Shown one piece after another: positions 19,708 to 39,667 of a stretch of DNA of 64,000 nt. Position 1 is the first letter of the stretch. Every line of letters begins with the position of its first letter. Under the pieces are notes generated by a model that was not told the origin of the DNA, did not search any database, and saw only the letters and a program-made list of their open reading frames with translations. Source of the stretch: Deltaproteobacteria bacterium (lineage in GTDB: Bacteria; Bdellovibrionota; JACOXK01); contig JACPKQ010000016.1 in the NCBI GenBank assembly GCA_016186995.1, forward strand, positions 5,627 through 69,626. The letters run 5' to 3'. A program made the position numbers and the translations under genes.

Positions 19708-19715
19708 TTAAAATA

Positions 19716-19770
19716 CTGGATTCCCGCCTCCGCGGGAATGACAGAAGGGGCCTGCAGGGATGACAGAGGA
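19716..19770. repeat. palindromic element 'ctggattcccgcctccgcgggaatgacagaa...gggatgacagagg'
   Basis: Perfect palindrome ggattcccg/cgggaatcc around a short loop. Same family as 1835..1893, 31145..31173 and 37839..37894, and related to the cores of 50204..50362 and 54170..54335. Confidence 0.7.
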
Positions 19771-19773
19771 TTT

Positions 19774-22461: not shown

Positions 22462-22857
22462 ATGTTTGAAGACTTCGCACACGTTCTTATTATGCTCATC
22501 GTAGGGGTTGTTTTTGTACCCTTAACATTGTTTGTAGGAAAGTTTGTCCGACCTCATAACCCTTATGCAGAAAAAGAGACAACTTATGAATGTGGAGAGG
22601 AACCACAAGGAAGTGCTTGGGTTCAATTTAACCTTCGATTTTATACCATTGCCATTCTTTTCATTATTTTTGAAGTTGAAGTAGCTCTGATATTTCCTGT
22701 TATTGCTGTATTTAGAGAAAAAGCATCTCAATCAACATGGGATACAGGGCTTTTAGTTTTTATAGAAATTCTTGTTTTTGTTCTTATATTAGTCTTAGGG
22801 CTTATCTACGCCTGGGTCAAAAAGGATCTTAACTGGATTAAAAAACTGACAACTTAA
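22462..22857 (+). CDS. nuoA: NADH-quinone oxidoreductase subunit A (cluster 1)
   Basis: YECGEEPQGSAWVQFNLRFYTIAILFIIFEVEVALIFP is the NuoA/ND3 signature. Confidence 0.85.
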   Translation: MFEDFAHVLIMLIVGVVFVPLTLFVGKFVRPHNPYAEKETTYECGEEPQGSAWVQFNLRFYTIAILFIIFEVEVALIFPVIAVFREKASQSTWDTGLLVFIEILVFVLILVLGLIYAWVKKDLNWIKKLTT

Positions 22858-22859
22858 TT

Positions 22860-23862
22860 ATGGAAACACTTGCAGGTTTTTTAGCAGAACTCACAAACAA
22901 TGTGCTTCCCTTTTGGGCTTATAGTCTCATTGCCATTCTACTTATTTTGGGTGTTGTGGCTCTTCCATTTGCAGGCATTGCCACTTATCTGGAAAGAAAG
23001 GTTTCGGCTGATATTCAAGCACGCATTGGCCCCAATCGTGTGGGCCCCTTTTATTCTTGCCCCCATGATTGTTATTGTAGGAAGTTTCGCTTCTTTTGTT
23101 GTTATTCCTTTTTCAGAAAAAATTATTATTTCAGATTTAAACATCGGTTTTCTTTATCTTCTTGCGATGGGTTCTCTTGTAGGGTTGGGTATTATTATGG
23201 GAGGTTGGGCCTCTAACAACAAATGGTCTCTTTTAGGCGGAATGCGTTCTGCAGCCCAAGTTATTTCTTATGAAATACCAAGTGCTTTAGCAGGCCTTTC
23301 AGTTGTGCTTGTTTCTGGAAGTTTGAGTTTTGGAACAATTGTAAGAGAGCAATCTCACTTGAACTGGTATATTTTTCATAATCCTTTTCTTTTTATCAAT
23401 TTTTTTATTTTTTTCACTGCTGCTTTAGCCGAAGTCAATCGAACACCCTTTGATATTCCAGAAGCAGAATCAGAACTTGTTGGAGGGTTCCATACAGAAT
23501 ATTCAGGTATGCGTTTTGCTATTTTCTTTATGGCAGAATACGCTGATATTTTTGTCATTTGTGCTATTTCTTCTGCTCTCTTTTTAGGTGGATGGTACTT
23601 ACCTTTCATTCCACTTGATGCTCTTTCTACAAACTTAAAAGTTTTTGTTCAGTTTTTTGTTGTCACTACAAAGACCCTCATTCTTTTTTATGTTGTCATG
23701 TGGTTAAGATGGACTTTGCCACGATATCGTGTGGATCAGCTGCTTGCTATTTGCTGGAAGTTTTTAACCCCACTTGCTTTTACAATGTTGATCTTTACAG
23801 CTCTTTGGGTTCTTGTTTTTCAAGGACGTGGGCTTGTACAAATGATTCAGGAGTTATTTTAA
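22860..23862 (+). pseudogene. nuoH: NADH-quinone oxidoreductase subunit H (cluster 1), disrupted by an out-of-frame internal deletion
   Basis: Frame 1 reads METLAGF...ARIGPNRVGPF and then degenerates. The NuoH sequence resumes in another frame (ORF 22900..23862: ...FILAPMIVIVGSFASFVVIPF...GGWASNNKWSLLGGMRSAAQVISYEI...). Relative to the intact copy at 32452, about 28 codons (LGLFQPIADGIKF...KILF) are missing at ~23046. Confidence 0.6.
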
Positions 23863-23863
23863 A

Positions 23864-24358
23864 ATGACAGATATTATTTTGCTCATTTTTGGCTTAATAA
23901 CCGTAGTTTCAGCTGCTCTCGCTGTTTTTCATCCTCACATTGTTTATGCAGCCTTTTCCCTCATGCTTACTTTTTTTGGAGTGGCTGGACTTTATGTTTT
24001 TTTACAAGCAGATTTTGTAGCTGGGGTTCAGGTGCTTATTTATGTAGGTGGCATTCTCATCCTTTTTCTTTTTGCCATTATGCTTTCCCATAAACTTTTT
24101 GGAAGTCCCCTTAGGGATTTACAAAAAAAATTGATTCCTGCTCTTGGCTTAAGCCTCCCCATTTTTTTTATTATTGCTTATGTGATTTTTTCAACAAATT
24201 GGAATCTTGTTTCTCAAACAGGACAAAATGAAACTGTTTCAAGTTTAGGGCATTTAATCCTTGATCAATATATTTTACCCTTTGAACTTGCCTCCATTCT
24301 TCTTTTAGGGGCCCTCATAGGGGCTGTGTATTTAGTGAGGTCTTCAGATGATAAATAA
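23864..24358 (+). CDS. nuoJ: NADH-quinone oxidoreductase subunit J (cluster 1)
   Basis: 164-aa hydrophobic protein; position and ...VQVLIYVGGILILFLFAIML match NuoJ/ND6. Confidence 0.75.
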   Translation: MTDIILLIFGLITVVSAALAVFHPHIVYAAFSLMLTFFGVAGLYVFLQADFVAGVQVLIYVGGILILFLFAIMLSHKLFGSPLRDLQKKLIPALGLSLPIFFIIAYVIFSTNWNLVSQTGQNETVSSLGHLILDQYILPFELASILLLGALIGAVYLVRSSDDK

Positions 24359-24656
24359 TCTTTATTTCTTCCTTACTATAAGTGCTCTTCTCTTCAGCTT
24401 GGGTATTACCGCTATTTTTTATAGAAAAAATATTATCGCAATTCTTATTGGGGTGGAACTTGTTCTTAATGCAGCTTCTTTAAATTTTGTCGCTTTTTCA
24501 AGATTTACACAATCTCATCTTCATGGCCAAGTCTTTGCTTTATTTATTATTATCATTGCAGCTGCTGAAGCAGCCGTTGCACTGGCTATTGTTTTAAGAC
24601 TTTTTCAAACAAAAGAAACCATTGATGTGGAGGAAGCAAACGCGCTTAGAAATTAA
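24348..24656 (+). CDS. nuoK: NADH-quinone oxidoreductase subunit K (cluster 1)
   Basis: 102 aa; ILIGVELVLNAASLNFVAF...IIIAAAEAAVALAIVL is the NuoK/ND4L signature. Confidence 0.85.
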   Translation: MINNLYFFLTISALLFSLGITAIFYRKNIIAILIGVELVLNAASLNFVAFSRFTQSHLHGQVFALFIIIIAAAEAAVALAIVLRLFQTKETIDVEEANALRN

Positions 24657-26818
24657 TGGACATGATCAAACTTTCATTACTTATCGTAACTCTTCCACTC
24701 ATAGCTTTCACCATTCAAATTCTTGTGGGTAAGCGCCTACCTCGAGATGGAGATTTTATTTCTCTTGCAAGTATTTTTGTTTCTTGGATTTTATCCCTTA
24801 AGCTTTTGTGGAATGCTTTTTCTCTTTATGATCCACAACTTAAAATCACAAAAGAATGGCTTTGGTTTGATTTGGCGCGGTTTTCAAGTGATTTAGACAT
24901 TTTTGCTTTAAAACTTCCTGTGGGCATTCTTTTAGATAATGTTTCAATTCTTATGCTTGTGGTTGTGACAACGGTCAGTTTTCTTGTGCACTTTTATTCA
25001 ATAGGTTATATGAAGGGTGACGCTCATTATTCACGATTTTTTGCCTATCTTTCTCTGTTTTCTTTTTCCATGCTTGGGCTGGTACTGACAGACAATCTTT
25101 TTGTTCTTTATATTTTTTGGGAGCTTGTTGGGGTGTGCTCTTATCTTTTGATTGGTTTTTGGTTTGAAAAGAGAAGTGCTGCTAATGCTTGTAAGAAGGC
25201 TTTTTTAACAACACGTGTGGGAGATATTGGCCTGTTCATTGGTATCATGATGGTCTTCACCACATTAGGAAGTGTTTCTTATTCCTCAATCTTTGAAGCG
25301 AAAGCTTCCGGGCTTTTTTCTGGTGTTTTCGGAACGATTGCCGGGCTTTGTATTTTTATGGGTGCTGTTGGGAAAAGTGCTCAGTTCCCACTTCACATTT
25401 GGTTACCTGATGCCATGGAAGGCCCAACACCGGTAAGCGCTCTTATTCACGCTGCCACCATGGTTGCCGCTGGTGTTTATCTTGTGGTTCGTCTTTTTGT
25501 CTTTTTTACTCCCGATGCGCTTCTCACAATCGCTTATGTGGGTGGATTCACCGCTTTGTTCGCCGCCACGATGGCTCTAACCCATCAAGATATAAAAAAA
25601 GTTTTAGCTTATTCAACTGTTTCCCAATTAGGGCTTATGATGCTCGCCTTAGGTGTGGGTGCCTACACAGCGGGTTTCTTCCATCTTGTGACTCACGCTT
25701 CTTTTAAAGCTTGTCTCTTCCTTGTTTCAGGAAGCGTGATTCATGCTCTTCATGGTGAACAAAATCTTTTTAAAATGGGTGGGCTTCGGAAAAAAATGCC
25801 CCTTACCTTTGGAACGTGCCTTATAGCAACACTTGCTATTGCAGGAGTTCCTTTATTTTCAGGTTTTGTGAGTAAAGATCAAATTTTAGCAGGCACTCTC
25901 TCTTTTGCTTATAACCATCCTCCACATTCTCTTCTTGCTTTTTTCGGTTTTGGGGCTTCGGCTCTTACAGCTTTTTATATGTTTCGGTTACTCTTTCTAA
26001 CTTTTTTTGGAAAACCACGCGATGAAAAACTTTATTCTCATGCACATGAATCATCTTTTGTAATAACACTTCCCCTTATTATTTTAGCTATTCTAAGTTT
26101 GGGGTTTATCTACGAAAAACAAAATTGGTTTGAACACCTTATTCAAAAGCCTCAACTCATTGCTATAAAATCAAGTGTTGTTGTGGCACCTAATTCCGAG
26201 ACACTACCTATTTTTAAAAAAATCAAAGAAAAAACAAAAGAGAATGTGGATCCTTCGGCTACGCCTCAGGATGACAGAGAGGTTCTCGGGGATGACGTAA
26301 AAGATCAACCACAAGTTGCCTATGTTGAGCCTCATAAAACAGAAAATGAAAAGAAAGCACACACACAAGCTATGGTTGCCTCTGTATTCTTTGCCTTTTT
26401 TTCTATTTTCTTAGCATGGCTCTTTTACATTCAAAGAGTTATAGATCCGGAAAAAGTTTCAGAAAAATATAAATCTGTTTATAATACATTAGTAAATCTT
26501 TATTGGATTGATGAGGCTTATCAATTTCTTTTTATTGGACCACTTATTAAAATAAACAATTTTCTCTATAAAAAAATAGATTCAGAAATTATTGACCAAG
26601 GGTTTATCGATAGGAGCGCTTTAATCACCGTCAAAACAGCACACGCGCAAGGCGATTTTGATAATACTGTCATTGACCGTGGTGTTGATGGCACAGCCCA
26701 CACTGTGTTTTCGGGGGGACTAAAACTTGTTCGAATCCAAACAGGCCAAGTTCAAGATTATCTTAAGATTGGTTTAGGTCTTGTGATTATTTTACTGATT
26801 GCATTTATACTGATGTAG
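24656..26818 (+). CDS. nuoL: NADH-quinone oxidoreductase subunit L (cluster 1), with ~100-aa charged insertion
   Basis: WLPDAMEGPTPVSALIHAATMVAAGVYL is the antiporter-like core. 720 aa versus 625 aa for the cluster-2 copy. The extra low-complexity segment KKIKEKTKENVDPSATPQDDREVLGDDVKDQPQVAYVEPHKTENEKK lies before the C-terminal helix. Confidence 0.85.
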   Translation: MDMIKLSLLIVTLPLIAFTIQILVGKRLPRDGDFISLASIFVSWILSLKLLWNAFSLYDPQLKITKEWLWFDLARFSSDLDIFALKLPVGILLDNVSILMLVVVTTVSFLVHFYSIGYMKGDAHYSRFFAYLSLFSFSMLGLVLTDNLFVLYIFWELVGVCSYLLIGFWFEKRSAANACKKAFLTTRVGDIGLFIGIMMVFTTLGSVSYSSIFEAKASGLFSGVFGTIAGLCIFMGAVGKSAQFPLHIWLPDAMEGPTPVSALIHAATMVAAGVYLVVRLFVFFTPDALLTIAYVGGFTALFAATMALTHQDIKKVLAYSTVSQLGLMMLALGVGAYTAGFFHLVTHASFKACLFLVSGSVIHALHGEQNLFKMGGLRKKMPLTFGTCLIATLAIAGVPLFSGFVSKDQILAGTLSFAYNHPPHSLLAFFGFGASALTAFYMFRLLFLTFFGKPRDEKLYSHAHESSFVITLPLIILAILSLGFIYEKQNWFEHLIQKPQLIAIKSSVVVAPNSETLPIFKKIKEKTKENVDPSATPQDDREVLGDDVKDQPQVAYVEPHKTENEKKAHTQAMVASVFFAFFSIFLAWLFYIQRVIDPEKVSEKYKSVYNTLVNLYWIDEAYQFLFIGPLIKINNFLYKKIDSEIIDQGFIDRSALITVKTAHAQGDFDNTVIDRGVDGTAHTVFSGGLKLVRIQTGQVQDYLKIGLGLVIILLIAFILM

Positions 26819-26827
26819 GAGGACTTT

Positions 26828-28393
26828 ATGCATAGTTGGTTTGGACAACACACTCTTTCGCTGATTACTTTTATTCCCATCATAGGAATATTACTTGTAT
26901 TAAGTATACCCAAAACAAAAGAAACGGTTCTAAAATATACAGCCCTTGCTTTTGCAACTACTCCTTTTGTTCTTTCTCTTTATGTTTACCAGTATTTTGA
27001 TTTGACTTCTTCTAAAATGCAGTTTGTAGAGCAACTCAACTGGATCCCAAGTTTTAATATTGAGTATTTTTTAGGAATCGATGGGCTTTCACTTCCTATG
27101 ATTCTTTTAACAGGACTTCTCTCTGCTCTTTGCATTATTGCATCATGGAATATTAAAAAAGGTCTTAAGGGTTATCTTGCTCTCTTTTTACTTTTAGAAA
27201 CAGGAATGCTTGGGGTTTTTTGTGCTCTTGATTTCTTTCTTTTTTTTATTTTTTGGGAAGTCATGCTTCTTCCTATGTATTTTCTTATTGGTATTTGGGG
27301 TGGTCCTAAAAAAGAATATGCAGCCATCAAGTTCTTCCTTTATACACTTGTTGGATCTGTTCTTATGCTTGTAGCTTTGATTGCTTTTTATCTCAACACA
27401 GATCCCCACACTTTTAATCTTATTAAACTTTCAGAACCTGGTATTTTAGTAGGCAATCAAATTTCACTTTTTGGAATCTCCTTATCTTTCCACAGTTTTA
27501 AAATACTCCTGTGGATATTTTTGTTTATCGGATTTGCTATTAAAGTCCCACTCTTTCCATTTCATACATGGTTGCCTTTAGCACACGTTGAGGCACCTAC
27601 TGCTATTTCTGTAATTCTTGCAGGCGTTCTTTTAAAAATGGGAACTTACGGATTGCTTAGAATTTCCTATCCTATTTTACCAGGAGAAACTCTTTACTTT
27701 ATTAAAGATATTCCGCTTCTTCCTCTTTTAGGGGTGGTGAATATTATTTATGGCGCCTGCTGTGCCATGGCCCAAATTACTTTACCTGAAGAAAAAGGTG
27801 GGAACGATCTTAAAAAACTGATCGCTTACTCCAGTATCAGCCATATGGGGTATGTCATTTTAGGAATGAGTGCCATGACAAGTGAAGCTATGCACGGAGC
27901 TGTGTTTCAAATGTTTAATCACGGAACTATCACTGCCATGCTCTTCTTACTTGTAGGTGTCATTTATGACCAAGCTCACCATAGAAAAATTGATGGCTTT
28001 GGAGGTTTGGCAACAAAAGTACCCGTGCTCACAGGTATTGTATCAGTTGCCTTTTTTGCGGCACTGGGTTTACCAGGGCTTTCTGGTTTTATCTCTGAAG
28101 CTCTTGTATTTTTAGGATCTTTTAAATCAACTCTCCCAGGGCTTCGTACTTTTACAGTCTTAGCTACTTTGGGTATTATTTTAAATGCTGCTTTTTTACT
28201 GTGGGCATTGCAAAAAATATTTTTAGGCACACTCAACACTCAATATGAAAACTTTCAAGATATGACAAAACGAGAGCTTATTACACTTGTTCCACTCACT
28301 GTGGTTGTCATTTTTTTAGGCGTGTATCCAACACCGATGCTTGATCTTATGCAACGAACTTTAAATAATTTATTGCACTTAATGGGAGTTTAA
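26828..28393 (+). CDS. nuoM: NADH-quinone oxidoreductase subunit M (cluster 1)
   Basis: FPFHTWLPLAHVEAPTAISVILAGVLLKMGTYGLLR is the NuoM/ND4 motif. Confidence 0.85.
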   Translation: MHSWFGQHTLSLITFIPIIGILLVLSIPKTKETVLKYTALAFATTPFVLSLYVYQYFDLTSSKMQFVEQLNWIPSFNIEYFLGIDGLSLPMILLTGLLSALCIIASWNIKKGLKGYLALFLLLETGMLGVFCALDFFLFFIFWEVMLLPMYFLIGIWGGPKKEYAAIKFFLYTLVGSVLMLVALIAFYLNTDPHTFNLIKLSEPGILVGNQISLFGISLSFHSFKILLWIFLFIGFAIKVPLFPFHTWLPLAHVEAPTAISVILAGVLLKMGTYGLLRISYPILPGETLYFIKDIPLLPLLGVVNIIYGACCAMAQITLPEEKGGNDLKKLIAYSSISHMGYVILGMSAMTSEAMHGAVFQMFNHGTITAMLFLLVGVIYDQAHHRKIDGFGGLATKVPVLTGIVSVAFFAALGLPGLSGFISEALVFLGSFKSTLPGLRTFTVLATLGIILNAAFLLWALQKIFLGTLNTQYENFQDMTKRELITLVPLTVVVIFLGVYPTPMLDLMQRTLNNLLHLMGV

Positions 28394-28399
28394 AAAGTC

Positions 28400-29872
28400 A
28401 TGTTAGAAACATTATCATTCATCCTTCCTGAACTTTCCCTAACACTCACTTTGTGTACTCTTTTACTTGTCGGACTTAAATTTAAAAATAAATTTCTTCT
28501 TTATAGTCTTGTCAAAATGGGTGTATTGGCTACTTTTATTTTTCTTGTGTGGGGTGGTGGTGGATATTTAAATAGTGTTTCTATTTTTTCCAACAGTTTA
28601 AGTATCGATCCTTTATCTCGATTTTTTAAAATACTCATTCTTTTCCCAACACTTTTTTGTTCTTGGTTTGCTTTAAATTCTTACGAACTTCACGAAAAAT
28701 CCCATATTGAAGCGCTTCTCCTCATATTAGGAAGCACTTTAGGAATGTTTTTTCTTGTAAGCAGCAGTGATCTTCTTATGATTTATCTCTCACTTGAGAC
28801 GGTAAGCATTTTCTCTTATGTTTTAGCAGGTATTCGAAAAAAACATGCTCTTTCCAATGAAGCTTCCGTCAAATACATGATTTTCGGTACTTTTGTAAGT
28901 GGTGGTATGCTGTATGGTTTGAGTCTTCTTTATGGCATGACAGGGTCTCTCAACCTTTTAGATATTGCTACCCAACTTAAAGATTACAACACCCATGATT
29001 TTTCACTTTTATTTATATCTCTTCTTATTTTTGGTGGATTTGCTTACAAAATTTCTGCGGTTCCGTTTCATATGTGGACGCCAGATGTCTATGAAGGAGC
29101 GCCCACACCTATTACAACCTTTTTCTCAACAGCTCCTAAAGTTGCTGGATTTGCAGTTCTTATTCGATTTTTTTATGTTGTTTTTTCAACTCAGATGACA
29201 GAAGGGGGTGTTACAATATGGGCAACTACTGATTTACACTGGCCTGAGATAGTAGCTCTTCTTTCAGCTATAACTATGACAGTAGGTAACTTTGCTGCTC
29301 TTTCTCAAACTAATGTCAAAAGACTTTTAGCTTACTCAACCATTGCTCATTCTGGATATATCCTCATGGGTTTTGTCGTTCTTGGGGTGGAGGGGCTTGA
29401 AGCCGTCCTCTTTTATACCCTTGTTTATATTTTTATGAAATTAGGAGCCTTTTTTGTAACTCAATGTGTAGGTAATAAATTTAAAAATGAAGAACTGAGC
29501 TCATTTAAAGAAATTGGGTGGAAATCCCCTCTTCTAGGAATCAGCATGACCCTTTTTCTTTTTGCTCTTATTGGACTTCCTCCTACAAGTGGCTTTATAG
29601 GAAAATTTTATCTTTTTAATGCTGCTCTTCACAAAGGTTTACTCTGGCTTGTCATTGTTGCTATTTTTAATTCTGTCGTTTCTCTTTATTATTACGCGAA
29701 AATTCTTAAGGCACTGTACCTTGAGAAAAGCGAAAAAGAGTTTTCATTTACACTTAACTTCTTTGACTCCTACGTTCTTGTCTTTCTTTCGGTAGCTGTT
29801 ATGCTCCTGGGGATTTACGTTGAACCTTTCATCCACTGGGTTAAAGCATCAGTTTATTTTATTGTTGGATAA
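28400..29872 (+). CDS. nuoN: NADH-quinone oxidoreductase subunit N (cluster 1)
   Basis: VPFHMWTPDVYEGAPTPITTFFSTAPKVAGFAVLIR is the NuoN/ND2 motif. Confidence 0.85.
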   Translation: MLETLSFILPELSLTLTLCTLLLVGLKFKNKFLLYSLVKMGVLATFIFLVWGGGGYLNSVSIFSNSLSIDPLSRFFKILILFPTLFCSWFALNSYELHEKSHIEALLLILGSTLGMFFLVSSSDLLMIYLSLETVSIFSYVLAGIRKKHALSNEASVKYMIFGTFVSGGMLYGLSLLYGMTGSLNLLDIATQLKDYNTHDFSLLFISLLIFGGFAYKISAVPFHMWTPDVYEGAPTPITTFFSTAPKVAGFAVLIRFFYVVFSTQMTEGGVTIWATTDLHWPEIVALLSAITMTVGNFAALSQTNVKRLLAYSTIAHSGYILMGFVVLGVEGLEAVLFYTLVYIFMKLGAFFVTQCVGNKFKNEELSSFKEIGWKSPLLGISMTLFLFALIGLPPTSGFIGKFYLFNAALHKGLLWLVIVAIFNSVVSLYYYAKILKALYLEKSEKEFSFTLNFFDSYVLVFLSVAVMLLGIYVEPFIHWVKASVYFIVG

Positions 29873-29875
29873 AAA

Positions 29876-30256
29876 ATGGCGTATCAAACTCACGAATACA
29901 TTGCCGTTGGAATGCTTTTTCTTTTTGCAGCACTCGTTGCTACTTTAATCTTGATTGCTACACATCTTTTGGGTCCTAAAATTAAAGACCCAGCTAAAAT
30001 GCGTCCTTATGAGTGTGGCCCTGAGCCACAGGGAACGCCACGTCATCAATTTTCTGTTCATTTCTATATCATTGCCATTTTCTTCATTCTTTTTGATATT
30101 GAGGCTGTTTTTATGTATCCATGGGCTGTGATGTTTAAAAAGTTTTTAATCCTGCAAGGATTTGTCATTATTCTTGATATGGTTGTATTCATTGGTATTT
30201 TAGCTGTTGGTTTTATTTATATTTGGAAAAAGAAGGCACTTGAATGGGATTTATAG
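29876..30256 (+). CDS. nuoA: NADH-quinone oxidoreductase subunit A (cluster 2)
   Basis: YECGPEPQGTPRHQFSVHFYIIAIFFILFDIEAVFMYP. Confidence 0.85.
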   Translation: MAYQTHEYIAVGMLFLFAALVATLILIATHLLGPKIKDPAKMRPYECGPEPQGTPRHQFSVHFYIIAIFFILFDIEAVFMYPWAVMFKKFLILQGFVIILDMVVFIGILAVGFIYIWKKKALEWDL

Positions 30257-30696
30257 ACAGAATTAAAGACGGAAAGCTAGAGGTTTCCGCCGATGATATG
30301 AAATCATGCGTGTGGGAATTTAAAGAAGCGGGGTTTTCTTATCTTTCTGATCTTACAGCCAGAGACAATTATCCAGAAAAGCCTCGGTTTCATGTCATTT
30401 ATATTCTTACTCATATGAAAGAAGGAAAATCTATTATTCTTAAAGTTCCTCTTCCAGAAGAAAACCTTCATATTTTGACCATTACTGATATTTGGCCTGG
30501 TGCTAATTGGTTAGAAAGAGAAGCCTTTGATATGTTTGGAATTATTTTTGATGGACATCCCAACCTTACAAGAATTTTGGCTTCGAGCTCTCAAAGCTGG
30601 AGTGGGCGTGGGACAGAAGACTACCCATTAAGAAAAGATTACAACCTTATCCAACGCCCTGGAGATGATAAAACAGAAAAAAATGAAAAATACTGA
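30244..30696 (+). CDS. nuoC: NADH-quinone oxidoreductase subunit C (30 kDa subunit), short form
   Basis: LTITDIWPGANWLEREAFDMFGIIFDGHPNLTRIL is the NuoC signature. No nuoB before it and no nuoD after it. Confidence 0.75.
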   Translation: MGFIDRIKDGKLEVSADDMKSCVWEFKEAGFSYLSDLTARDNYPEKPRFHVIYILTHMKEGKSIILKVPLPEENLHILTITDIWPGANWLEREAFDMFGIIFDGHPNLTRILASSSQSWSGRGTEDYPLRKDYNLIQRPGDDKTEKNEKY

Positions 30697-31144
30697 TCAG
30701 AAATACATTGAAGAAATTTTTTCTAGATACCCTAACAAGCGGGCAGCAACCCTCCCACTTTTAACGCTTGCACAAGAAAGATTTGGATACATTTCAAAAG
30801 AAGCCTGTGTGTGGGTTGCAGAGCTTATTGGGGTTTCCCCTATGGAAGTTCATGAAACAGCAAGTTTTTACACCCTGTATTATTTAGAACCTGTGGGCAA
30901 AAATAAAATTAAACTATGCACTAATGTTTCTTGCATGCTTTTAGGGGCTAAAAAAATTGAAAAAACCTTAAAAAGAAAATTGGGTTTAAAAAAGAAAGGC
31001 ACTACAGAAGATAAAAAATTTCATTTTGAAACAGCAGAATGTTTAGGTTATTGCGATAAAGCCCCTGTGATGCAGATAAATACCGAAACATTTGAAAAAA
31101 TTTCTGATGAAAAGGTAGATGAAATTTTAAAAAAATATGAATAG
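30665..31144 (+). CDS. nuoE: NADH-quinone oxidoreductase subunit E (24 kDa, [2Fe-2S])
   Basis: Cys ligands in CTNVSCMLLGAKK...TAECLGYCDKAPVMQIN. Confidence 0.8.
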   Translation: MIKQKKMKNTDQKYIEEIFSRYPNKRAATLPLLTLAQERFGYISKEACVWVAELIGVSPMEVHETASFYTLYYLEPVGKNKIKLCTNVSCMLLGAKKIEKTLKRKLGLKKKGTTEDKKFHFETAECLGYCDKAPVMQINTETFEKISDEKVDEILKKYE

Positions 31145-31173
31145 TGGATTCCCGCCTTTGCGGGAATGACATT
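31145..31173. repeat. palindromic element ggattcccgcctttgcgggaatgacattgg between nuoE and nuoF
   Basis: 9-bp perfect stems ggattcccg/cgggaatcc; family of 19716..19770. Confidence 0.7.
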
Positions 31174-31180
31174 GGATTTT

Positions 31181-32455
31181 ATGGAAAAATATTTTCTTAA
31201 AAATATTGGTAAAAAAGACTCACACAAGCTTTCTACTTATGAAGAAAGTGGTGGGTATCAAACTATTCAAAAAGTTTTTAAACTTGAACCCCAAAAAGTC
31301 GTGGAAGAAGTAAAAATCTCTGGTCTTCGTGGATTAGGGGGTGCAGGATTTCCTACAGGAATGAAATGGGGTTTTATTCCTAAAAATATTTCTCCCAGAT
31401 ATCTTGTCTGCAATGCAGATGAAGGGGAGCCAGGCACTTTTAAAGACAGATGGCTTATGGATAACGACCCCCACCTTCTCTTAGAAGGTATTATGATAGC
31501 AAGTTACGCACTTGATATTCATACAGCTTATATTTTTATTCGCGGTGAGTTTTACAATGCAACTCAAAAAGTAAAAGAAGCCATCAAAGAATGTTATGAA
31601 CAAAAATATTTGGGTAAAAATATTTTTGGGAAGAGTTTTGATCTTGATATTTATGTTCATAGTGGCGCAGGGGCTTATATTTGCGGTGAAGAAACTGCAC
31701 TTTTAGAAGCTTTGGAGGGCAAACGCGGACTTCCACGAGTAAAACCACCCTTTCCAGCCATTGAAGGGCTTTTTGGAAAACCGACAGTTATTAATAACGT
31801 TGAAACCCTATGTGGAGTTAAGCTTATCTTAGAACATGGGGCGAAGTGGTACAAAAGTGTGGGAACTGAAAAAAATCCTGGTTACAAACTTTTCCCAATT
31901 AGTGGACATGTGAACAAACCGGGCGTTTATGAACTTCCTTTTGGAATGCCAGTTCAAGAAATTATTGAAAAATATGGTGGTGGAGTCCCAGAAGGAAGAA
32001 AAATTAAAGGGGTTATTCCAGGTGGATCAAGCTCTGGTGTTTTAACAGCTTCGGAACTTAATACACCTATGGATTTTGAAACCTTCCGTGGAAAAGGGAT
32101 GATTCTAGGAACCGCTTCTATCATTGTGATGGATGAAACAACAGATATGGTTGAGATTCTTCATAACATTATGCATTTTTATGCTGAAGAATCTTGTGGG
32201 CAGTGTACACCTTGTCGAGAAGGCACGATGTGGAGCTATAAAATTTTGAATCGTCTCATGAAAGACGAAGGAACACGGGAAGATATTGAAACCTTAAAAA
32301 GAATAGCGAAAAATATCAGTGGCACAACACTGTGTGCCTTAGCTGATGGTGCTGCCATTCCTTTAAAAGGATTTGTAGAAAAATTTCCAGAAGATTTTGA
32401 AAAAAGAATACGAGCACCTAGAAGAGAAACACCTAAACCGGTGATTATGCGATGA
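31181..32455 (+). CDS. nuoF: NADH-quinone oxidoreductase subunit F (51 kDa, FMN/NADH-binding)
   Basis: GLRGLGGAGFPTGMKWGF (FMN site), NADEGEPGTFKDR, and the C-terminal Cys cluster ESCGQCTPCREG. Start chosen at MEKYFLKN, after the repeat. Confidence 0.85.
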   Translation: MEKYFLKNIGKKDSHKLSTYEESGGYQTIQKVFKLEPQKVVEEVKISGLRGLGGAGFPTGMKWGFIPKNISPRYLVCNADEGEPGTFKDRWLMDNDPHLLLEGIMIASYALDIHTAYIFIRGEFYNATQKVKEAIKECYEQKYLGKNIFGKSFDLDIYVHSGAGAYICGEETALLEALEGKRGLPRVKPPFPAIEGLFGKPTVINNVETLCGVKLILEHGAKWYKSVGTEKNPGYKLFPISGHVNKPGVYELPFGMPVQEIIEKYGGGVPEGRKIKGVIPGGSSSGVLTASELNTPMDFETFRGKGMILGTASIIVMDETTDMVEILHNIMHFYAEESCGQCTPCREGTMWSYKILNRLMKDEGTREDIETLKRIAKNISGTTLCALADGAAIPLKGFVEKFPEDFEKRIRAPRRETPKPVIMR

Positions 32456-33507
32456 CGCTTACTATTTTGTTAGTTACATTACTTAAAGTTCTTGTTCTTT
32501 CTTTTGTTGTCATCAATGTTGTTCCACTCATGACATGGGTTGAAAGAAGAGGAAGTGCTTTTATACAAGGCCGTATTGGTCCAAATCGTGTAGGGCCTTT
32601 GGGGCTTTTTCAACCTATAGCCGATGGTATCAAATTCATCATGAAAGAGGATACTTATTATCCTCATGTTGATAAAATTCTTTTTATCATTGCCCCAGCT
32701 TTAGCCCTCATTCCTGCTATATTAGCGTTTGCCGCCATTCCTTTTGGCCCACAATTTACGTTGTGGGGATACACAACCGCTCTTCAAATTGCTGATATCA
32801 ATATTGGGGTTATTTATGTTTTGGCTATCGCCTCTTTAAGTATTTATGGAATTCTTTTAGGTGGCTGGGCCTCTAATAATAAATACAGCTTTTTAGGAAG
32901 CGTTCGAAGCAGTGCTCAGATGATTTCATACGAAGTTGCCTTGGGCCTTTCTATTGTAGGGCTTCTGATGATTTATGAAACCACTAGTTTAAAAGACATG
33001 GTCTTAGCACAATCAGTTCCTTTGTGGGGAGTTTTACCTAAATGGGGAATTTTTACTCAACCTGTGGCTTTTCTTCTTTTTTGGATTTGTATATTTGCCG
33101 AAACAAACAGACTTCCTTTTGATTTACCAGAAGGCGAGACGGAGCTTGTAGCAGGCTATCACACCGAATATTCAGGAATGAAGTTTGCACTTTTTTTTAT
33201 GTCTGAATATATGGCTATGTTTACAGGAAGCGCCCTTGCGGCCACCCTTTTTTTAGGTGGCTGGGCTTTCCCACCCGGCATTCAGGAATGGATTCTCAAC
33301 TTTGGCCTTTCTAGAAATTTATTTGCTTTTATATGCTTTATCAATTTTATGATTAAGGTTGCGTTCTTCTTATGGTGTTTTGTATGGGTGAGGTGGACCT
33401 TCCCACGATTTAGATATGATCAACTTATGAAATTAGGTTGGAAGTTTATGATACCTGTTGCTCTTTTAAATATTTTAGCTACAGGATTTGTCATATACGG
33501 GGCTTAA
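32452..33507 (+). CDS. nuoH: NADH-quinone oxidoreductase subunit H (cluster 2, intact)
   Basis: GRIGPNRVGPLGLFQPIADGIKF...GGWASNNKYSFLGSVRSSAQMISYEV...TNRLPFDLPEGETELVAGYHTEYSGM. Confidence 0.85.
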   Translation: MTLTILLVTLLKVLVLSFVVINVVPLMTWVERRGSAFIQGRIGPNRVGPLGLFQPIADGIKFIMKEDTYYPHVDKILFIIAPALALIPAILAFAAIPFGPQFTLWGYTTALQIADINIGVIYVLAIASLSIYGILLGGWASNNKYSFLGSVRSSAQMISYEVALGLSIVGLLMIYETTSLKDMVLAQSVPLWGVLPKWGIFTQPVAFLLFWICIFAETNRLPFDLPEGETELVAGYHTEYSGMKFALFFMSEYMAMFTGSALAATLFLGGWAFPPGIQEWILNFGLSRNLFAFICFINFMIKVAFFLWCFVWVRWTFPRFRYDQLMKLGWKFMIPVALLNILATGFVIYGA

Positions 33508-33511
33508 AACG

Positions 33512-33997
33512 ATGGAACACATACTTTTTTATGTTATAAGTGGTTTAGCAATTATAAGTGCTTTAAGCGTTATTCTGAATAAAAACCCTGTTTATTCAGC
33601 TTTATCACTTGTAGGTTTTCTTTTTGTTCAAGCCATCCTTTTTGTACTTCTCAAAGCTTATTTTATAGCTATTGTACAGGTGCTTGTTTATACGGGTGCC
33701 ATTATGGTGCTTTTTGTTTATGTTGTTATGGTTATGAAGCTAAATGAAGAACTTCTTCCTCGTATTCGCTTAAGACCTTTTAGTCTTTTTCTTGCTGGGC
33801 TTTTTGCTTCTTATCTATTTTATATTTTTTCAAAAACACCCACTTTTTCACATCCTGTTTTAAAAACAGGCGATATTTCAGAAATAGGAGAGCTTTTATT
33901 TTCAAAATATGTACTTCCTTTTGAAGTCATTAGCTTATTGTTACTTGTTGCTATGGTAGGGGCTGTTGTTTTAAATAGGAAAAGCAAACATGAATGA
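33512..33997 (+). CDS. nuoJ: NADH-quinone oxidoreductase subunit J (cluster 2)
   Basis: Paralog of 23864..24358 (VQVLVYTGAIMVLFVYVVMV). Start at MEHILFYV just after the nuoH stop. Confidence 0.75.
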   Translation: MEHILFYVISGLAIISALSVILNKNPVYSALSLVGFLFVQAILFVLLKAYFIAIVQVLVYTGAIMVLFVYVVMVMKLNEELLPRIRLRPFSLFLAGLFASYLFYIFSKTPTFSHPVLKTGDISEIGELLFSKYVLPFEVISLLLLVAMVGAVVLNRKSKHE

Positions 33998-34283
33998 GTA
34001 TTTTATTTTAGCAAGTATTCTTTTTGCACTTGGAGTCACAGGTGTTCTTATGAGACGCAATCTTTTGGTTATTCTTATGTCTGTTGAGATCATGCTTGCA
34101 AGTAGTAATCTTGCTTTGATTGCAGCTTCTTCTCATGTTGGCAATTTACACGGACATATTTTTGTACTTTTTAATATTGCTGTTGCCGCTGCTGAAGCAG
34201 CTGTAGGCCTTGCTTTGATTGTTATTATTTATAAAAATAAAAAGACCGAAAACGTTGATCAGTTTACATCACTTCACGGATAA
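33990..34283 (+). CDS. nuoK: NADH-quinone oxidoreductase subunit K (cluster 2)
   Basis: ILMSVEIMLASSNLALIAAS...NIAVAAAEAAVGLALIVI. Confidence 0.85.
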   Translation: MNEYFILASILFALGVTGVLMRRNLLVILMSVEIMLASSNLALIAASSHVGNLHGHIFVLFNIAVAAAEAAVGLALIVIIYKNKKTENVDQFTSLHG

Positions 34284-34423
34284 TTAAAAAAACAGCCCAT
34301 CTAAAGCACCACCCCCAAACTGAAAACCCCAATCCCACTTCTGTCTTTAAAATTTCTTTACTTGCCAGCCCAAGAGGAGGCGTGTAGCTTTGTTCAAGTC
34401 ATTGAGATTATAGGGGAAACCTG

Positions 34424-36301
34424 ATGTCTTCATACTTGATTTACGTTGCACTTTTAAGCCCTTTTTTAGGGTTTTTAATACAGATTTTTTTAGGTGGAAA
34501 GCTTTCCAAAACTATTTCTGGAACAATATCTTCTCTTGCTGTTTTTGTTTCGTTTTTAGCAAGTCTTTTTCTCTTTTTTGAGTTCCACAATGTCAGCTTT
34601 TCCCATACACTTTTCTCTTGGTTTGATATTGGAGATTTCAAAGCAGATTTTTCCGTAAAAATAGACCAGCTATCCCTTCTTATGATGCTTGTTGTAACAG
34701 GTATCAGTACTTTAATTCATATTTATTCAACAGGTTACATGCACGAAGATCCGCTTTTTTCTCGTTACTTTGGTTACTTAAATCTTTTTGTATTTATGAT
34801 GCTTACCCTTATTATGGCAGACAATCTTCTTCTTATGTTTGTGGGCTGGGAGGGTGTTGGTTTGTGCTCTTATCTTTTGATTGGTTTTTGGTTTGAAGAT
34901 GATTTTAAAGCTTTTTGTGGAAAAAAAGCATTTATTGTTAATAGAATTGGGGATGCTGCCTTTATTTTAGGAATTTTTCTTATTTTTTCTTTATTTGGAA
35001 CGCTTGAGTTTGAATCTCTTTACACTTCTACTTTAAACCGCTCCCCTGAAATGGGCTTTGGTCTTCTTTCTTGCATCACTCTTTTTCTTTTTATAGGCGC
35101 AACAGGAAAAAGCGCACAAATTCCTCTTTATGTATGGTTACCAGATGCCATGGCAGGCCCAACCCCTGTTTCAGCTCTTATTCATGCTGCTACCATGGTA
35201 ACAGCCGGTGTGTATATGATTTGTCGCTTGAGCTTTTTTTATGATCTAACACCCATTGTTCAAAATATTATTATTGTGATCGGAATGGCTACAGCGATTC
35301 TTTCAGGACTGATTGCTCTTACACAAAAAGATATTAAAAAAGTTTTAGCTTATTCAACGGTTTCTCAATTGGGCTATATGTTTGTTGCAGCTGGCCTCGC
35401 AGCTTATGGGGCTGCCATGTTTCATCTGACAACACATGCTTTTTTCAAAGCCCTTCTTTTTCTTTGTTCAGGAAGTGTCATTCATGCCATGAACGGGGAG
35501 CAAGATATGTTTAAAATGGGCGGGCTTAAAAATGTCATGCCTATTACTTACCTTTCTTTTCTTGTGGGGGCCTTAGCGCTTTCAGGTATTCCCCCTTTGG
35601 CGGGTTTCTTCAGTAAAGATACTATACTTGCATTTGCCTTTGCAAAATCCCCCCTTCTTTGGGGATTAACTGCTTTCACAGCACTTCTCACTTCTTTTTA
35701 TATTTTTAGAGCTTTATCTCTCACCTTTCATGGAAAATTAGGCAATATTCATGCTCATGAATCCCCTAGTTCTATGACTGTTCCTCTTGTTTTGCTTTCT
35801 TGTGGAACATTGCTCGTTGGTTTTTTAGGACTACCCCCCATGTTTTCTCACCTTTTTCATGTTGAAAATCTGTTTGAAAAATTCTTGGGATGGGAATCCT
35901 CTCTTCACCTTTCAGGGCAAACAGAGTGGTTTTTGATGGGTGCGTGCTCAGCATTGGTCATACTCACCGCCTACACAGCCACAAAGCTTTTTAGTGGAGA
36001 CAAAGCAAAAGTAACAGCGCTGAAAAACAAATTTTCAAAACTTCACACACTTTCAGAAAATAAATTTTATGTGGATGAGTTTTACGATCTTGTTTTTGTG
36101 AAAACTGCACACAAGAAAGCTCAGTTTTTTTGGGAAAAAATTGATATTTTTGTGATTGATGGAATAGTCAACGGCGTTGGATCACTAGGAAGAAATCTTT
36201 CAATACTCTTGAGCCTTATTCAAACGGGAAGGGTCATTAATTATGCCTTTATGATGTTTTTAGGTATGATTTTAATTCTTCTTTATTTAGTGAAGTTGTA
36301 A
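34424..36301 (+). CDS. nuoL: NADH-quinone oxidoreductase subunit L (cluster 2)
   Basis: WLPDAMAGPTPVSALIHAATMVTAGVYM. Preceded by an unusual 140-nt intra-operon gap. Confidence 0.85.
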   Translation: MSSYLIYVALLSPFLGFLIQIFLGGKLSKTISGTISSLAVFVSFLASLFLFFEFHNVSFSHTLFSWFDIGDFKADFSVKIDQLSLLMMLVVTGISTLIHIYSTGYMHEDPLFSRYFGYLNLFVFMMLTLIMADNLLLMFVGWEGVGLCSYLLIGFWFEDDFKAFCGKKAFIVNRIGDAAFILGIFLIFSLFGTLEFESLYTSTLNRSPEMGFGLLSCITLFLFIGATGKSAQIPLYVWLPDAMAGPTPVSALIHAATMVTAGVYMICRLSFFYDLTPIVQNIIIVIGMATAILSGLIALTQKDIKKVLAYSTVSQLGYMFVAAGLAAYGAAMFHLTTHAFFKALLFLCSGSVIHAMNGEQDMFKMGGLKNVMPITYLSFLVGALALSGIPPLAGFFSKDTILAFAFAKSPLLWGLTAFTALLTSFYIFRALSLTFHGKLGNIHAHESPSSMTVPLVLLSCGTLLVGFLGLPPMFSHLFHVENLFEKFLGWESSLHLSGQTEWFLMGACSALVILTAYTATKLFSGDKAKVTALKNKFSKLHTLSENKFYVDEFYDLVFVKTAHKKAQFFWEKIDIFVIDGIVNGVGSLGRNLSILLSLIQTGRVINYAFMMFLGMILILLYLVKL

Positions 36302-37909
36302 ATGGATTTATTGTTAAAACATTTTTTAAGCATTACTATTTTCTTACCGGCCCTTTTTGGCCTTTTTCTTTTTTTTATACCTCAAAGTAAAACAAGGTTT
36401 TTAAAATTTGTTTCTTTAAACGGAAGTATTCTTACCTTTTTAATGACCCTTGGCATTTTGTGTTATTTTACAGGAACGGCTGAAGTACAATTTGTTGAAA
36501 AATATTCCTGGATACCTCTTTTTGGGGTTTCTTATTTTATTGGTATCGATGGTTTAAGCCTTTATCTTTTTATTCTTACAAGTTTTTTGACACCCCTTGT
36601 TCTTCTTTATGTATCTCCTGAAGAAAAAAAGCTAAAACCCTTTTTGATTCTTATTTTATTTTTAGAAACGGCTATGCTCGGTACTTTTGCAGCGCTTGAC
36701 CTTATTCTTTTCTACATTTTTTGGGAGGCCATGCTCATCCCCATGTATTTTATGATTGGAGTGTGGGGTGGGGAAGAAAGGCTGTACGCAACGATCAAGT
36801 TTTTGCTTTATACCATTCTAGGAAGCTTCTTAATGTTAGTTGCCTTGATTGCACTTGTGATGATTCACCATTCAACAACAGGTGTTTTTACAACAAATCT
36901 TTTAAAACTTTATGGCACACCATTAGGCTCTTTAGAAATGTGGTTGTTTTTAGGATTTGCTCTTGCCTTTCTTATTAAAGTGCCCCTTTTTCCTTTTCAT
37001 ACATGGTTGCCTGATGCACACGTTCAGGCTCCCACAGAAGGAAGCGTCATTTTAGCAGGGATTTTACTTAAAATGGGTATGTATGGACTTTTTCGTTTTG
37101 CTTTGCCTTTATTCCCTCAAGCAAGCATGGCGGTGACACCTTATGTTGTTACCCTTGCGCTTATAGGAATTATTTATGGTGCTTTTCTGGCCTGGGCTCA
37201 AAAAGATCTTAAAAAACTTGTGGCCTATTCAAGTGTCAGTCACTTAGGTTATGCAGTGCTAGGGCTTTTTGTTTTAAACCATACAGGGGTTACAGGAAGC
37301 TTAGTTCAAAATATCTCTCACGGGCTTGCCACAGGGGCACTCTTTTTTATTGTTGGAATGATTTACAAACGTACTCACACAAAGAAAATTGAAGAATTGG
37401 GTGGGCTTGCAAGTTCATGTCCTAAACTTTTCTTTTTCTTTCTCATTGCAACATTGGCAAGTATTGGTTTACCCCTTACAAGTGGTTTTGTAGGTGAGAT
37501 CCTTTGTCTTTTTGGAGCTTTCCAAGAATATGGCGTACAGGGTTTTGCGTGGGGTGGGGAAACTTTGATCAACATAAGAAATATTATTTTTGGAACAGTG
37601 GGCATTCTTGGCGTACTTATGGGTGCTATCTACATGCTTAATATGTTTCAAAAAGTAATGTTTGGAAAACCAAAATTTGAAGATTTGAAAGATCTTGAAT
37701 GGAAAGAGGTTTTAGTTTTAACACCTTTAATTATTATGATTTTCTCAATTGGGGTGTACCCAAAATTGCTCACAAACAAGATGGAAAATTCTATCGATCA
37801 TCTTGTTAAAAACGTTTATAAATATTCGTTAACAACTTTGTCATTCCCACCCGAAGCTCTCGGCACAAGCGGGAACCCAGAAAGCGAAGCTACCTCTAAA
37901 AAGGATTAA
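36302..37909 (+). CDS. nuoM: NADH-quinone oxidoreductase subunit M (cluster 2) with repeat-encoded C-terminal tail
   Basis: FPFHTWLPDAHVQAPTEGSVILAGILLKMGMYGLFR. The last ~23 aa (LSFPPEALGTSGNPESEATSKKD) are encoded by palindromic element 37839..37894 and are absent from the cluster-1 NuoM. Confidence 0.85.
   Translation: MDLLLKHFLSITIFLPALFGLFLFFIPQSKTRFLKFVSLNGSILTFLMTLGILCYFTGTAEVQFVEKYSWIPLFGVSYFIGIDGLSLYLFILTSFLTPLVLLYVSPEEKKLKPFLILILFLETAMLGTFAALDLILFYIFWEAMLIPMYFMIGVWGGEERLYATIKFLLYTILGSFLMLVALIALVMIHHSTTGVFTTNLLKLYGTPLGSLEMWLFLGFALAFLIKVPLFPFHTWLPDAHVQAPTEGSVILAGILLKMGMYGLFRFALPLFPQASMAVTPYVVTLALIGIIYGAFLAWAQKDLKKLVAYSSVSHLGYAVLGLFVLNHTGVTGSLVQNISHGLATGALFFIVGMIYKRTHTKKIEELGGLASSCPKLFFFFLIATLASIGLPLTSGFVGEILCLFGAFQEYGVQGFAWGGETLINIRNIIFGTVGILGVLMGAIYMLNMFQKVMFGKPKFEDLKDLEWKEVLVLTPLIIMIFSIGVYPKLLTNKMENSIDHLVKNVYKYSLTTLSFPPEALGTSGNPESEATSKKD
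37839..37894. repeat. palindromic element (inverse orientation copy of the 1835..1893 family) forming the 3' end of nuoM-2
   Basis: tgtcattcccacccgaagctctcggcacaagcgggaacccagaaagcgaagctacc aligns at roughly 75% identity (by eye) to the reverse complement of 1835..1893. Confidence 0.7.
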
Positions 37910-37910
37910 A

Positions 37911-39326
37911 ATGGTAGAAACAAGTTTAAAATTGATGCCACTTCTTGCTCTTGCAGGTGGATCTTTTTTAGTTTTACTTTACGAAGTTTTTTCAAAAAAA
38001 TTAAAATCCTATTCTTTTTTTCTTTCACTTCTTATTCTTGGTATAAGCGGTTATTATATAATAACTCTTTTTGGAAGCGGTGAAATCACTCTTTTTGAAG
38101 GATTTCTCACCCTTAATAATTACTGGCTTTTTGTAGCAGGCCTTATTGTTTTTGTAAGTTTCTTTACCCTTCTTCTTTCTTACCCTTACAAAGGTCTTAA
38201 AAATGAATACTACTTTCTTATTTTAATAGCAGCGCTTGGCATGAGTCTTATCCCTGCAACATGGAATTTTTTGACTCTCTTTTTAGGAGTAGAACTTCTT
38301 TCTCTTTGTTTTTATATTCTTGTAACATACCAAACCAGTAATTTGAGAGCCAATGAAGCAGCTCTTAAATATTTTATATTGGGCGCTTTTGCAGCTGGTT
38401 TTTTTGTTTTTGGAATTGCTCTTATTTATGCAGCGACAGGCTCTTTCTCAATGAAAGATACATCTTCTATACTTCTTACCCCGGAAGTAAATATGACTTA
38501 CCTCACAATAGGGATTGCTTTTATAATTGTGGCTTTAGGTTTTAAAATAGCATCTGCTCCTTTTCACATGTGGACACCTGATGCCTATGAAGGAGCTCCA
38601 ACACCCATTACTTCTTTTATGGCAACAGGGGTTAAAGTTGCTGCCTTTGCAGCTCTTTATCAGATCTTTTTTGTTTACTTGGCTCCGCTTAAAACACATT
38701 GGGAGTTTGTCTTTTATGCTTTGTGTATTTTAACCATGTTTGTTGGAAATTTAGGGGCTCTTATTCAAAAAAATGTGAAAAGACTTTTAGCTTATTCTTC
38801 TATTGCTCATGCAGGTTATCTCCTCATTCCTTTTGTAAGCTATACTTTTAATACAAAAATAGAGGCATCCACTTCTCTTTTTTATTATTTAGTTATTTAC
38901 TGCATTATGAACATCGGTGCTTTTGCAATTGTTATTGCTTTAGGTCAAGAAGACATAGATGATTATGCAGGGCTTAGCTCCAAAAAACCTTTGACCGCTT
39001 TAGTTTTTTCGCTTTTTCTTCTTTCTTTAGCAGGTTTTCCACCCACAGCAGGATTTTTAGCTAAGTTTTTTATTTTTGCTGCAGCTCTTCAAACAAAATT
39101 TTATTGGCTCGTTGTTTTAGCTGTTATTAACGCTTTTATAGCCATTTATTACTACACAAAAATTATTGTCACTATGTATATGAAAGAATCTGAAGTATCC
39201 GAGACAAAAACATCTTTTCACCCTTTACTTATTGTGACTCTTGTTATTATGGCAGCACTCACACTTTACCTAGGCATAAAACCAGATCTTCTTTTAAATT
39301 TAATCAAAAACTCTTTGTTTTTTTAA
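37911..39326 (+). CDS. nuoN: NADH-quinone oxidoreductase subunit N (cluster 2)
   Basis: APFHMWTPDAYEGAPTPITSFMATGVKVAAFAALYQ. Confidence 0.85.
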   Translation: MVETSLKLMPLLALAGGSFLVLLYEVFSKKLKSYSFFLSLLILGISGYYIITLFGSGEITLFEGFLTLNNYWLFVAGLIVFVSFFTLLLSYPYKGLKNEYYFLILIAALGMSLIPATWNFLTLFLGVELLSLCFYILVTYQTSNLRANEAALKYFILGAFAAGFFVFGIALIYAATGSFSMKDTSSILLTPEVNMTYLTIGIAFIIVALGFKIASAPFHMWTPDAYEGAPTPITSFMATGVKVAAFAALYQIFFVYLAPLKTHWEFVFYALCILTMFVGNLGALIQKNVKRLLAYSSIAHAGYLLIPFVSYTFNTKIEASTSLFYYLVIYCIMNIGAFAIVIALGQEDIDDYAGLSSKKPLTALVFSLFLLSLAGFPPTAGFLAKFFIFAAALQTKFYWLVVLAVINAFIAIYYYTKIIVTMYMKESEVSETKTSFHPLLIVTLVIMAALTLYLGIKPDLLLNLIKNSLFF

Positions 39327-39355: not shown

Positions 39356-39667
39356 TTAATAAGTTTTTTTAAAGCTTCTGAGCTTGACGTAGCCTGCAAC
39401 AACTTTTTCTGGATTAAGCCCAATATATTTGGAATACTGTCTTAAAAACCCTTTAAGATAAACAAGGGCAGGAAATACATCTAAATCTTCCTCTTCAATA
39501 GCTCTTAAATAGTTTTTCCCAACTCGAGTTTTATCTGCAATTTCATCTAACGAAATCTTTCGAAACTCTCTTACTTGTCTTAAAAACTCACCTGTAAAGA
39601 ACTCTTTTTGATTCATTTCACTTTCAAAAGAATGAACACTTTGTTCTGAAGTCAGTTCTTCACTCAT
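39356..39667 (-). CDS. helix-turn-helix protein, RodZ N-terminal-like
   Basis: LRQVREFRKISLDEIADKTRVGKNYLRAIEEED is an XRE-type HTH as found in the RodZ N-terminus. Short (103 aa), with no transmembrane segment. Confidence 0.5.
   Translation of the reverse strand: MSEELTSEQSVHSFESEMNQKEFFTGEFLRQVREFRKISLDEIADKTRVGKNYLRAIEEEDLDVFPALVYLKGFLRQYSKYIGLNPEKVVAGYVKLRSFKKTY

Follow-up and report, generated by a model that had tools for sequence, protein, structure and literature searches.

Two diverged complex I membrane arms and a partial peripheral arm in a 17-gene nuo locus of an uncultured groundwater bacterium

Within a 64,000-nucleotide stretch of contig JACPKQ010000016.1 (assembly GCA_016186995.1; hereafter the window), the genome of an uncultured groundwater bacterium of the Bdellovibrionota harbors 17 complex I (nuo) genes in a row, all on the + strand, at positions 22462-39326 (open reading frame (ORF) listing and Pfam). 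Their order is A-H-J-K-L-M-N (set 1) and then A-C-E-F-H-J-K-L-M-N (set 2); these are the contents that the first-pass annotation had given for its two clusters, and each gene call is upheld by Pfam. In the proposed model, the 17 genes form one transcription unit for two entire Nuo-type membrane arms of ancient divergence, plus NuoC and the NADH-oxidizing pair NuoE/NuoF, and other genomic loci would supply in trans the bridging NuoG and the subunits of the iron–sulfur and quinone sites, NuoB, NuoD and NuoI. Each membrane arm would dock on such a peripheral arm, so that there would be two complex I isoenzymes with different membrane parts. This model, with NuoB, NuoD, NuoG and NuoI provided in trans, is put forward with moderate confidence; the two membrane arms may have one peripheral arm in common or one each.

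The genes are tightly packed, with intergenic distances of -32 to +21 nt, bar a single gap of 140 nt between nuoK2 and nuoL2 (the suffix denotes the set), and only 3 nt separate nuoN1 from nuoA2 (gap table). This packing and the short passage from one set to the other suggest a single transcription unit, in which the 17 genes would be co-transcribed. Between the genes of the operon, consensus scans for promoters and terminators gave no signal, and no terminator-like site lies there, 34284-34423 included.

Nuo-type character of both sets

The seven membrane subunits NuoA, NuoH, NuoJ, NuoK, NuoL, NuoM and NuoN match their Pfam families in both sets. The set-1 proteins also score above the NCBIfam cut-offs for NuoL (NF005141; 655 bits against 556), NuoM (TIGR01972; 576 against 264), NuoN (TIGR01770; 416 against 333) and NuoH (341 against 305, an orthologue of the disrupted nuoH1 being used). 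The Mrp, Mnh and Hyf models give on set 1 about half of the Nuo scores, far under their own cut-offs (130-323 bits for the Mrp models, which require 540-1100). No homologues of MrpE, MrpF or MrpG are seen in the window, and it contains no hydrogenase subunits. Each of the two sets is thus a true Nuo set, and neither is of the Mrp or Mbh kind.

A motif scan reveals that the residues of the proton path are kept in both sets, namely the Glu of transmembrane helix (TM) 5, the Lys of TM7, the Lys/His of TM8, the Lys/Glu of TM12 and the two Glu residues of NuoK; the TM8 motif HA.FKA of NuoL1 and NuoL2 was read by eye, as the regular expression was too strict. In the solved structures of complex I, the TM1-2 and TM5-6 loops of NuoH form the lining of the quinone chamber and are in contact with NuoB and NuoD. 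These loops are present in NuoH2 and in the NuoH1 orthologue, and in set 1 they retain the conserved sequences ER(K)..Q.R.GPN / GLLQ..AD..K and AE.NR.PFD..E.E.ELV.G..TEYS. NuoH1-type proteins and NuoH2 are 72% identical in the TM1-2 loop and 70% in the TM5-6 loop, compared with 45% overall. The NuoH1 orthologue can be aligned end to end with the solved NdhA and NuoH chains, with 274 bits against NdhA and 231 bits against Thermus Nqo8, and NuoH2 scores much alike against NdhA, mycobacterial NuoH and Nqo8; from the slightly higher NdhA score, no conclusion is drawn on whether set 1 is tied to the photosynthetic NDH-1 in particular. Because both the proton-channel residues and the quinone-chamber loops of NuoH are kept, both membrane arms should be able to dock a NuoB/NuoD/NuoI module made elsewhere.

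The two sets are far apart in sequence, as the first-pass annotation had noted when it described the membrane subunits as duplicated but diverged. Identity between paralogues is 36% for NuoA, 41% for NuoH, 32% for NuoJ, 40% for NuoK, 46% for NuoL, 41% for NuoM and 34% for NuoN. Such values of 32-46% indicate that the duplication is ancient, and they rule out a recent duplication of the membrane arm. NuoL1, which is identical to the NCBI entry MBI2608778.1, has 720 residues, against the 625 of NuoL2. It bears a hydrophilic, charged insertion of about 80 residues (residues ~515-600; window ~26200-26450) 5' of the region encoding the C-terminal lateral helix; the length of this insertion differs between orthologues, which total 649-731 aa. 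The C-terminal tail of NuoM2 had been regarded as repeat-derived, an origin for which the tandem-repeat scan offers no support, since it returned only trivial, low-score rows and no meaningful repeat under the tail.

Missing subunits and partitioned loci in other genomes

The absence of nuoB, nuoD, nuoI and nuoG, noted at first for the two clusters, extends to the whole window, where tblastn yields no match (best E > 0.5). The queries were the NuoI of Escherichia coli, validated by its finding of NuoI at many H-I-J loci, and the NuoB, NuoD and NuoG encoded at locus L002. The quinone (Q) module is thereby left in the window without NuoB, NuoD and NuoI, and the NADH-oxidizing (N) module has NuoE and NuoF but not NuoG. 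The folds of NuoC, NuoE and NuoF are intact, and NuoE2 and NuoF2 carry the N1a, flavin mononucleotide (FMN) and N3 motifs. In the electron path of complex I, cluster N3 of NuoF has no acceptor if NuoG is missing. As the NuoH loops and the cofactor motifs of NuoE and NuoF are maintained, a NuoB/NuoD/NuoI module and a bridging NuoG are expected somewhere in the genome, and the four subunits are predicted to be encoded outside the window.

The presence of NuoC, NuoE and NuoF without NuoD or NuoB had been pointed out as odd, and it is indeed rare. Among 5.8 billion proteins NuoC2 has only 7 close homologues (64-93% identity), after which identity drops to 57% or less, and a metagenome scan with NuoC2 added only two further fragments of the clade. 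The relatives show the order A-H-J-K-L-M-N-A-C-E-F (L044, GCA_016182335.1), L-M-N-A-C-E-F-H-J-K (L045) and K-L-M-N-A-C-E-F-H-J-K (a contig of ERZ27297570), with 64-71% NuoC identity among them. Set-1 proteins are 54-77% identical across the members of the clade and all their functional motifs are kept. That three or more independent assemblies of relatives repeat the same order argues that the two-set arrangement is selected and is not a remnant.

The arrangement, odd as it is, has its place on a known continuum of split nuo operons. Stand-alone, seven-gene operons of the set-1 type are found in L049 and L050 (GWA2_38_16 lineage) and in L054 (a 4.5-Mb contig of ERZ26167216). In L052 (GCA_040960315.1; 7688-22049), a membrane-only A-H-J-K-L-M-N set occurs twice in tandem, once as the orthologue of set 1 and once as that of set 2, and a gene for a 55-aa Trm112-like protein stands between the two; C, E and F are missing there, and nothing lies between A2 and H2. 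Outside the clade, the closest NuoF relative (57% identity) belongs to a metagenome-assembled genome (MAG) of the Nitrospirales with the order A-B-C-D-E-F-G. About 30 genomes of Bryobacterales/Terriglobia encode a NuoF with ~50% identity in an operon A-C-D-E-F-G-H-J-K-L-M-N, in which NuoB gives no match at E <= 1e-3 and H and J lie too close together for an I; for almost all genes in these operons, the best-matching query comes from set 2. Metagenomes supplied 78 further NuoC loci as a background sample, and B lies 5' of C and D lies 3' of C in nearly all of them; the departures from this rule are operons like those of Acidobacteria, solitary nuoC genes and B-D-I-C operons standing alone. The latter, which comprise a Q module by itself, occur on soil metagenome contigs (L072, L075-L078 and L080) with no other nuo gene within ~7-10 kb; that of L080 (7574-10381) is flanked by a gene for a transketolase and by genes of the sulfite-oxidase family. 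Lone nuoC homologues are seen in L081 and L091 (~10001-10340), with no further nuo gene in the locus (20.3 kb in L081, 15.0 kb in L091). Isolated nuoE-nuoF pairs are found in Aquificaceae MAGs (L033, L035, L036 and L041). Complex I genes are often partitioned by module, and the window is an extreme point of this series. Two complex-I-like assemblies with a trans-encoded Q module had been one of the two options offered in the first-pass annotation, and it is indirectly favoured by the NuoH loops, the NuoC, NuoE and NuoF motifs and these split operons.

Lesions in set 1 and alternative explanations

NuoH1 was correctly identified as a NuoH, but its gene is not intact in this assembly. Its true start is at 22860, and the 320-aa ORF at 22900-23862 corresponds only to the 3' part, without the N-terminal motifs. 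Those are held by an overlapping ORF that begins at 22860 (METLAGF...YLERKVSADIQARIGPNRVGP) and then leaves the frame. Alignment to the 362-aa orthologue of L044 indicates that the gene lacks ~83 nt near 23049, which shifts the frame, and the GLLQ..AD..K part of the loop falls in this deletion. Two independent Logan contigs of run SRR12113424 bear on its origin: L046 agrees with the window as far as 23035, and L047 opens with 48 nt that are missing from the window, encoding LIMKEDIIPKAADKKLF, and then rejoins it. As L047 carries the missing segment, the same population also has an intact nuoH1 allele. The deletion stems either from strain variation or from an error of assembly.

Several observations weigh against two working isoenzymes. 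No nuoB, nuoD, nuoG or nuoI of the clade was found in the 64-kb window or in any of the clade fragments examined. Lesions or rearrangements of set 1 are present in three assemblies, namely in nuoH1 of the window, in nuoM1 of L044 and in L056. The nuoM1 orthologue of L044 (6680-8077) has an in-frame deletion of 54 aa, with the loss of one transmembrane helix, and there are no N bases at that place. In L056 (323-4484), livK/H/M/G-like ATP-binding cassette (ABC) transporter genes and a 276-nt spacer lie directly 5' of L1-M1-N1-A2-C2, in place of A1-H1-J1-K1; in a relative with 87% NuoL identity, K1 and L1 are contiguous. Set 1 may therefore not be fully functional everywhere. These changes may reflect erosion of set 1, modular exchange or assembly noise.

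On the strength of these three lesions, set 1 could be seen as a superfluous membrane arm in decay in the clade, with only set 2, joined by NuoC, NuoE, NuoF and by NuoB, NuoD, NuoG and NuoI supplied in trans, forming a working enzyme. This is considered unlikely, given the intact nuoH1 allele in the same population, the conservation of the set-1 proteins and their motifs across the clade, and the maintenance of set-1-type operons as stand-alone units in distant lineages; moreover, the lesions could be effects of strain variation or assembly.

It could also be proposed that set 1 is a stand-alone, Mrp-like cation/proton antiporter without a redox module. No peripheral-arm gene is linked to the set-1-type operons of L049, L052 and L054, and the nuoAHJKLMN cluster of actinomycetes has been treated as a proton pump (PMC6676996). 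The Mrp scores given above, the lack of MrpE, MrpF and MrpG homologues, and the presence of a NuoH, which Mrp does not have and whose loops for contact with NuoB and NuoD are conserved, make this proposal improbable, and the antiporter-like module that the first-pass annotation had suggested as its other option is disfavoured on these grounds.

A somewhat less probable proposal is that L1-M1-N1 serves the set-2 arm, as an extension of its distal pump module or as a substitute for it, so that there would be modular assembly at the K|L junction instead of two enzymes. This junction is a recurrent break point: besides the 140-nt gap of the window, there are inserts in L054 (an ankyrin-repeat gene, 9215-9922) and in L045 (a DUF6036/AbiEii-like pair, 8997-9745), and L056 has L1-M1-N1-A2-C2 without A1-H1-J1-K1 on its 5' side. 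However, most clade members have a complete A-H-J-K-L-M-N set 1, and the contig of the L056 fragment (ORJL010762746.1) has a further 8.8 kb on the upstream side, where A1-H1-J1-K1 could lie.

Taken jointly, only a slim chance is left for two further proposals, either that the clade lacks NuoB, NuoD, NuoI and NuoG and NuoC, NuoE and NuoF pass electrons to the membrane arms by another route, or that both membrane arms are built around one peripheral arm as a two-armed or extended pump. The true loss of the four subunits, with a non-canonical connection between NuoC/NuoE/NuoF and the membrane arms, is the least credible of all, since its sole support is their absence from the window and the clade fragments, NuoC, NuoH and NuoA keep the features for binding NuoD and NuoB, and cluster N3 would be left without its acceptor. 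Besides, nuoB and nuoI are documented as unlinked genes in Acidobacteria (bioRxiv 10.1101/197269), and operons with only B-D-I-C exist.

If both membrane arms do alternate on one peripheral arm, the locus would be a natural case of combinatorial complex I assembly, in which different modules for pumping and quinone entry are swapped on a fixed redox module. Arranged by gene content, the loci compared form a graded series, from the canonical 14-gene operon to operons without B and I, then without B, D, G and I, and finally membrane-only; with the B-D-I-C operons of the Q module added, it provides a concrete set of genomes for studying the gain, loss and sharing of complex I modules. The two-set operon is known here from the comparative genomics of uncultured bacteria alone.

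Organization of the locus and relation to known systems

The features of the locus are collected in Table 1. The operon lies between unrelated genes, with two ABC exporters and a TauE-family gene on its 5' side and, on its 3' side, the convergent helix-turn-helix (HTH) gene, a glycosyltransferase gene, pilMNOPQ, aroC and aroB; all other sizeable ORFs of the window correspond to housekeeping genes only (Pfam). Terminator-like sites are somewhat commoner than expected (25 found, 16.7 expected) and promoter-like sites are not enriched over shuffled sequence (48 found, 48.4 expected). Scans detected no Rfam family, also within 34284-34423, and no tRNA. Upstream of the paired ABC exporters (17857-21537), the stretch 14565-17779 contains a radical SAM gene, genes for two YtkA-like proteins and two ORFs without a Pfam match, and at 1267-4050 both strands carry several overlapping ORFs (147-240 aa), none of which matches Pfam.

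Table 1. Coordinates and features of the nuo locus in the window
Feature	Position	Strand	Characteristics
nuoA1	22462-22857	+	131 aa; PF00507, E 2e-31; YECG and FEVE motifs
nuoH1, disrupted	22860-23862	+	5' ORF 22860-23216; 3' ORF 22900-23862 (PF00146 match)
nuoJ1	23864-24358	+	PF00499
nuoK1	24348-24656	+	PF00420; both conserved membrane Glu kept
nuoL1	24656-26818	+	720 aa; PF00361 and PF00662
nuoM1	26828-28393	+	TIGR01972; TM5 Glu, TM7 Lys, TM8 Lys and TM12 Glu kept
nuoN1	28400-29872	+	TIGR01770
nuoA2	29876-30256	+	PF00507; 3 nt downstream of nuoN1
nuoC2	30244-30696	+	150 aa; PF00329, E 3e-35; overlaps nuoA2 and nuoE2; no adjoining B or D
nuoE2	30665-31144	+	PF01257; N1a cysteines in CTNVSC and CLGYC
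nuoF2	31166-32455	+	PF01512 and PF10589; FMN motif GLGGAGF; N3 motif CGQCTPC
nuoH2	32452-33507	+	PF00146, E 7e-121; all four NuoH motifs; nuoF2 directly 5' (no G), nuoJ2 directly 3' (no I)
nuoJ2	33488-33997	+	PF00499
nuoK2	33990-34283	+	PF00420
Intergenic gap nuoK2/nuoL2	34284-34423	none	140 nt; sole long gap of the operon; K|L module boundary
nuoL2	34424-36301	+	625 aa; PF00361, PF00662 and PF01010
nuoM2	36302-37909	+	535 aa; PF00361; hydrophilic C-terminal tail of ~30 aa
nuoN2	37911-39326	+	PF00361; final gene of the run
HTH gene	39356-39667	-	convergent neighbour 3' of nuoN2

Several known systems share part of this organization. The Mrp/Mnh antiporters and the group-4 membrane-bound hydrogenases have homologous antiporter-like subunits (PF00361) in common with the two sets, but set 1 differs from them in having NuoH, NuoA and NuoJ and in scoring as Nuo, not as Mrp or Hyf. 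In Aquifex aeolicus, multiple nuo loci encode complex I isoforms, with duplicated membrane subunits and single-copy peripheral subunits located apart; the comparison is a tentative one, and neither the gene partition nor the lineage is that of the window.

Membrane-only nuoAHJKLMN clusters have been described in the marine actinomycetes Salinispora, Streptomyces and Kocuria (PMC6676996), and such a cluster is also described for all Bdellovibrionota, beside a second, full set, with 37.5-41.5% identity between the two nuo sets of Peredibacter (PMC13147790). Their content and order are those of set 1, without any peripheral-arm gene, and they also coexist with a second nuo set. In them, however, the second set is complete (14 genes), whereas the second set of the window, which has no B, D, G or I, follows directly downstream in the same operon. 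None of these clusters is among the best 120 matches of NuoL1 or NuoM1; the likeness is one of gene content and order only.

Set 2 resembles operons of the kind seen in the Bryobacterales/Terriglobia loci, which are on record for peatland Acidobacteria as nuoACDHJKLMN operons, one of them with nuoEFG (Hausmann et al., bioRxiv 10.1101/197269). In both cases A and C adjoin without B and H and J adjoin without I, and the acidobacterial NuoF is ~50% identical to NuoF2. The acidobacterial operons differ in keeping nuoD and nuoG, which set 2 also lacks, and in having no tandem, membrane-only set on the 5' side.

No description of an A-C-E-F-H arrangement or of the 17-gene tandem was found in the literature. 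The 'split' nuo operon is nevertheless a named category in Bdellovibrio (PMC4758237), and in Nitrospina gracilis the NUO-2 enzyme is encoded by nuoACHIJKLMN, nuoEGD and lone nuoB2 and nuoF2 genes at scattered loci (PMC3578206). These bacteria resemble the window in that the subunits of one enzyme are spread across several loci, and the window differs from them in that two membrane arms are placed in one operon, with a peripheral arm of only NuoC, NuoE and NuoF. The two-set operon thus carries to an extreme a splitting of nuo genes that other bacteria are known to show.

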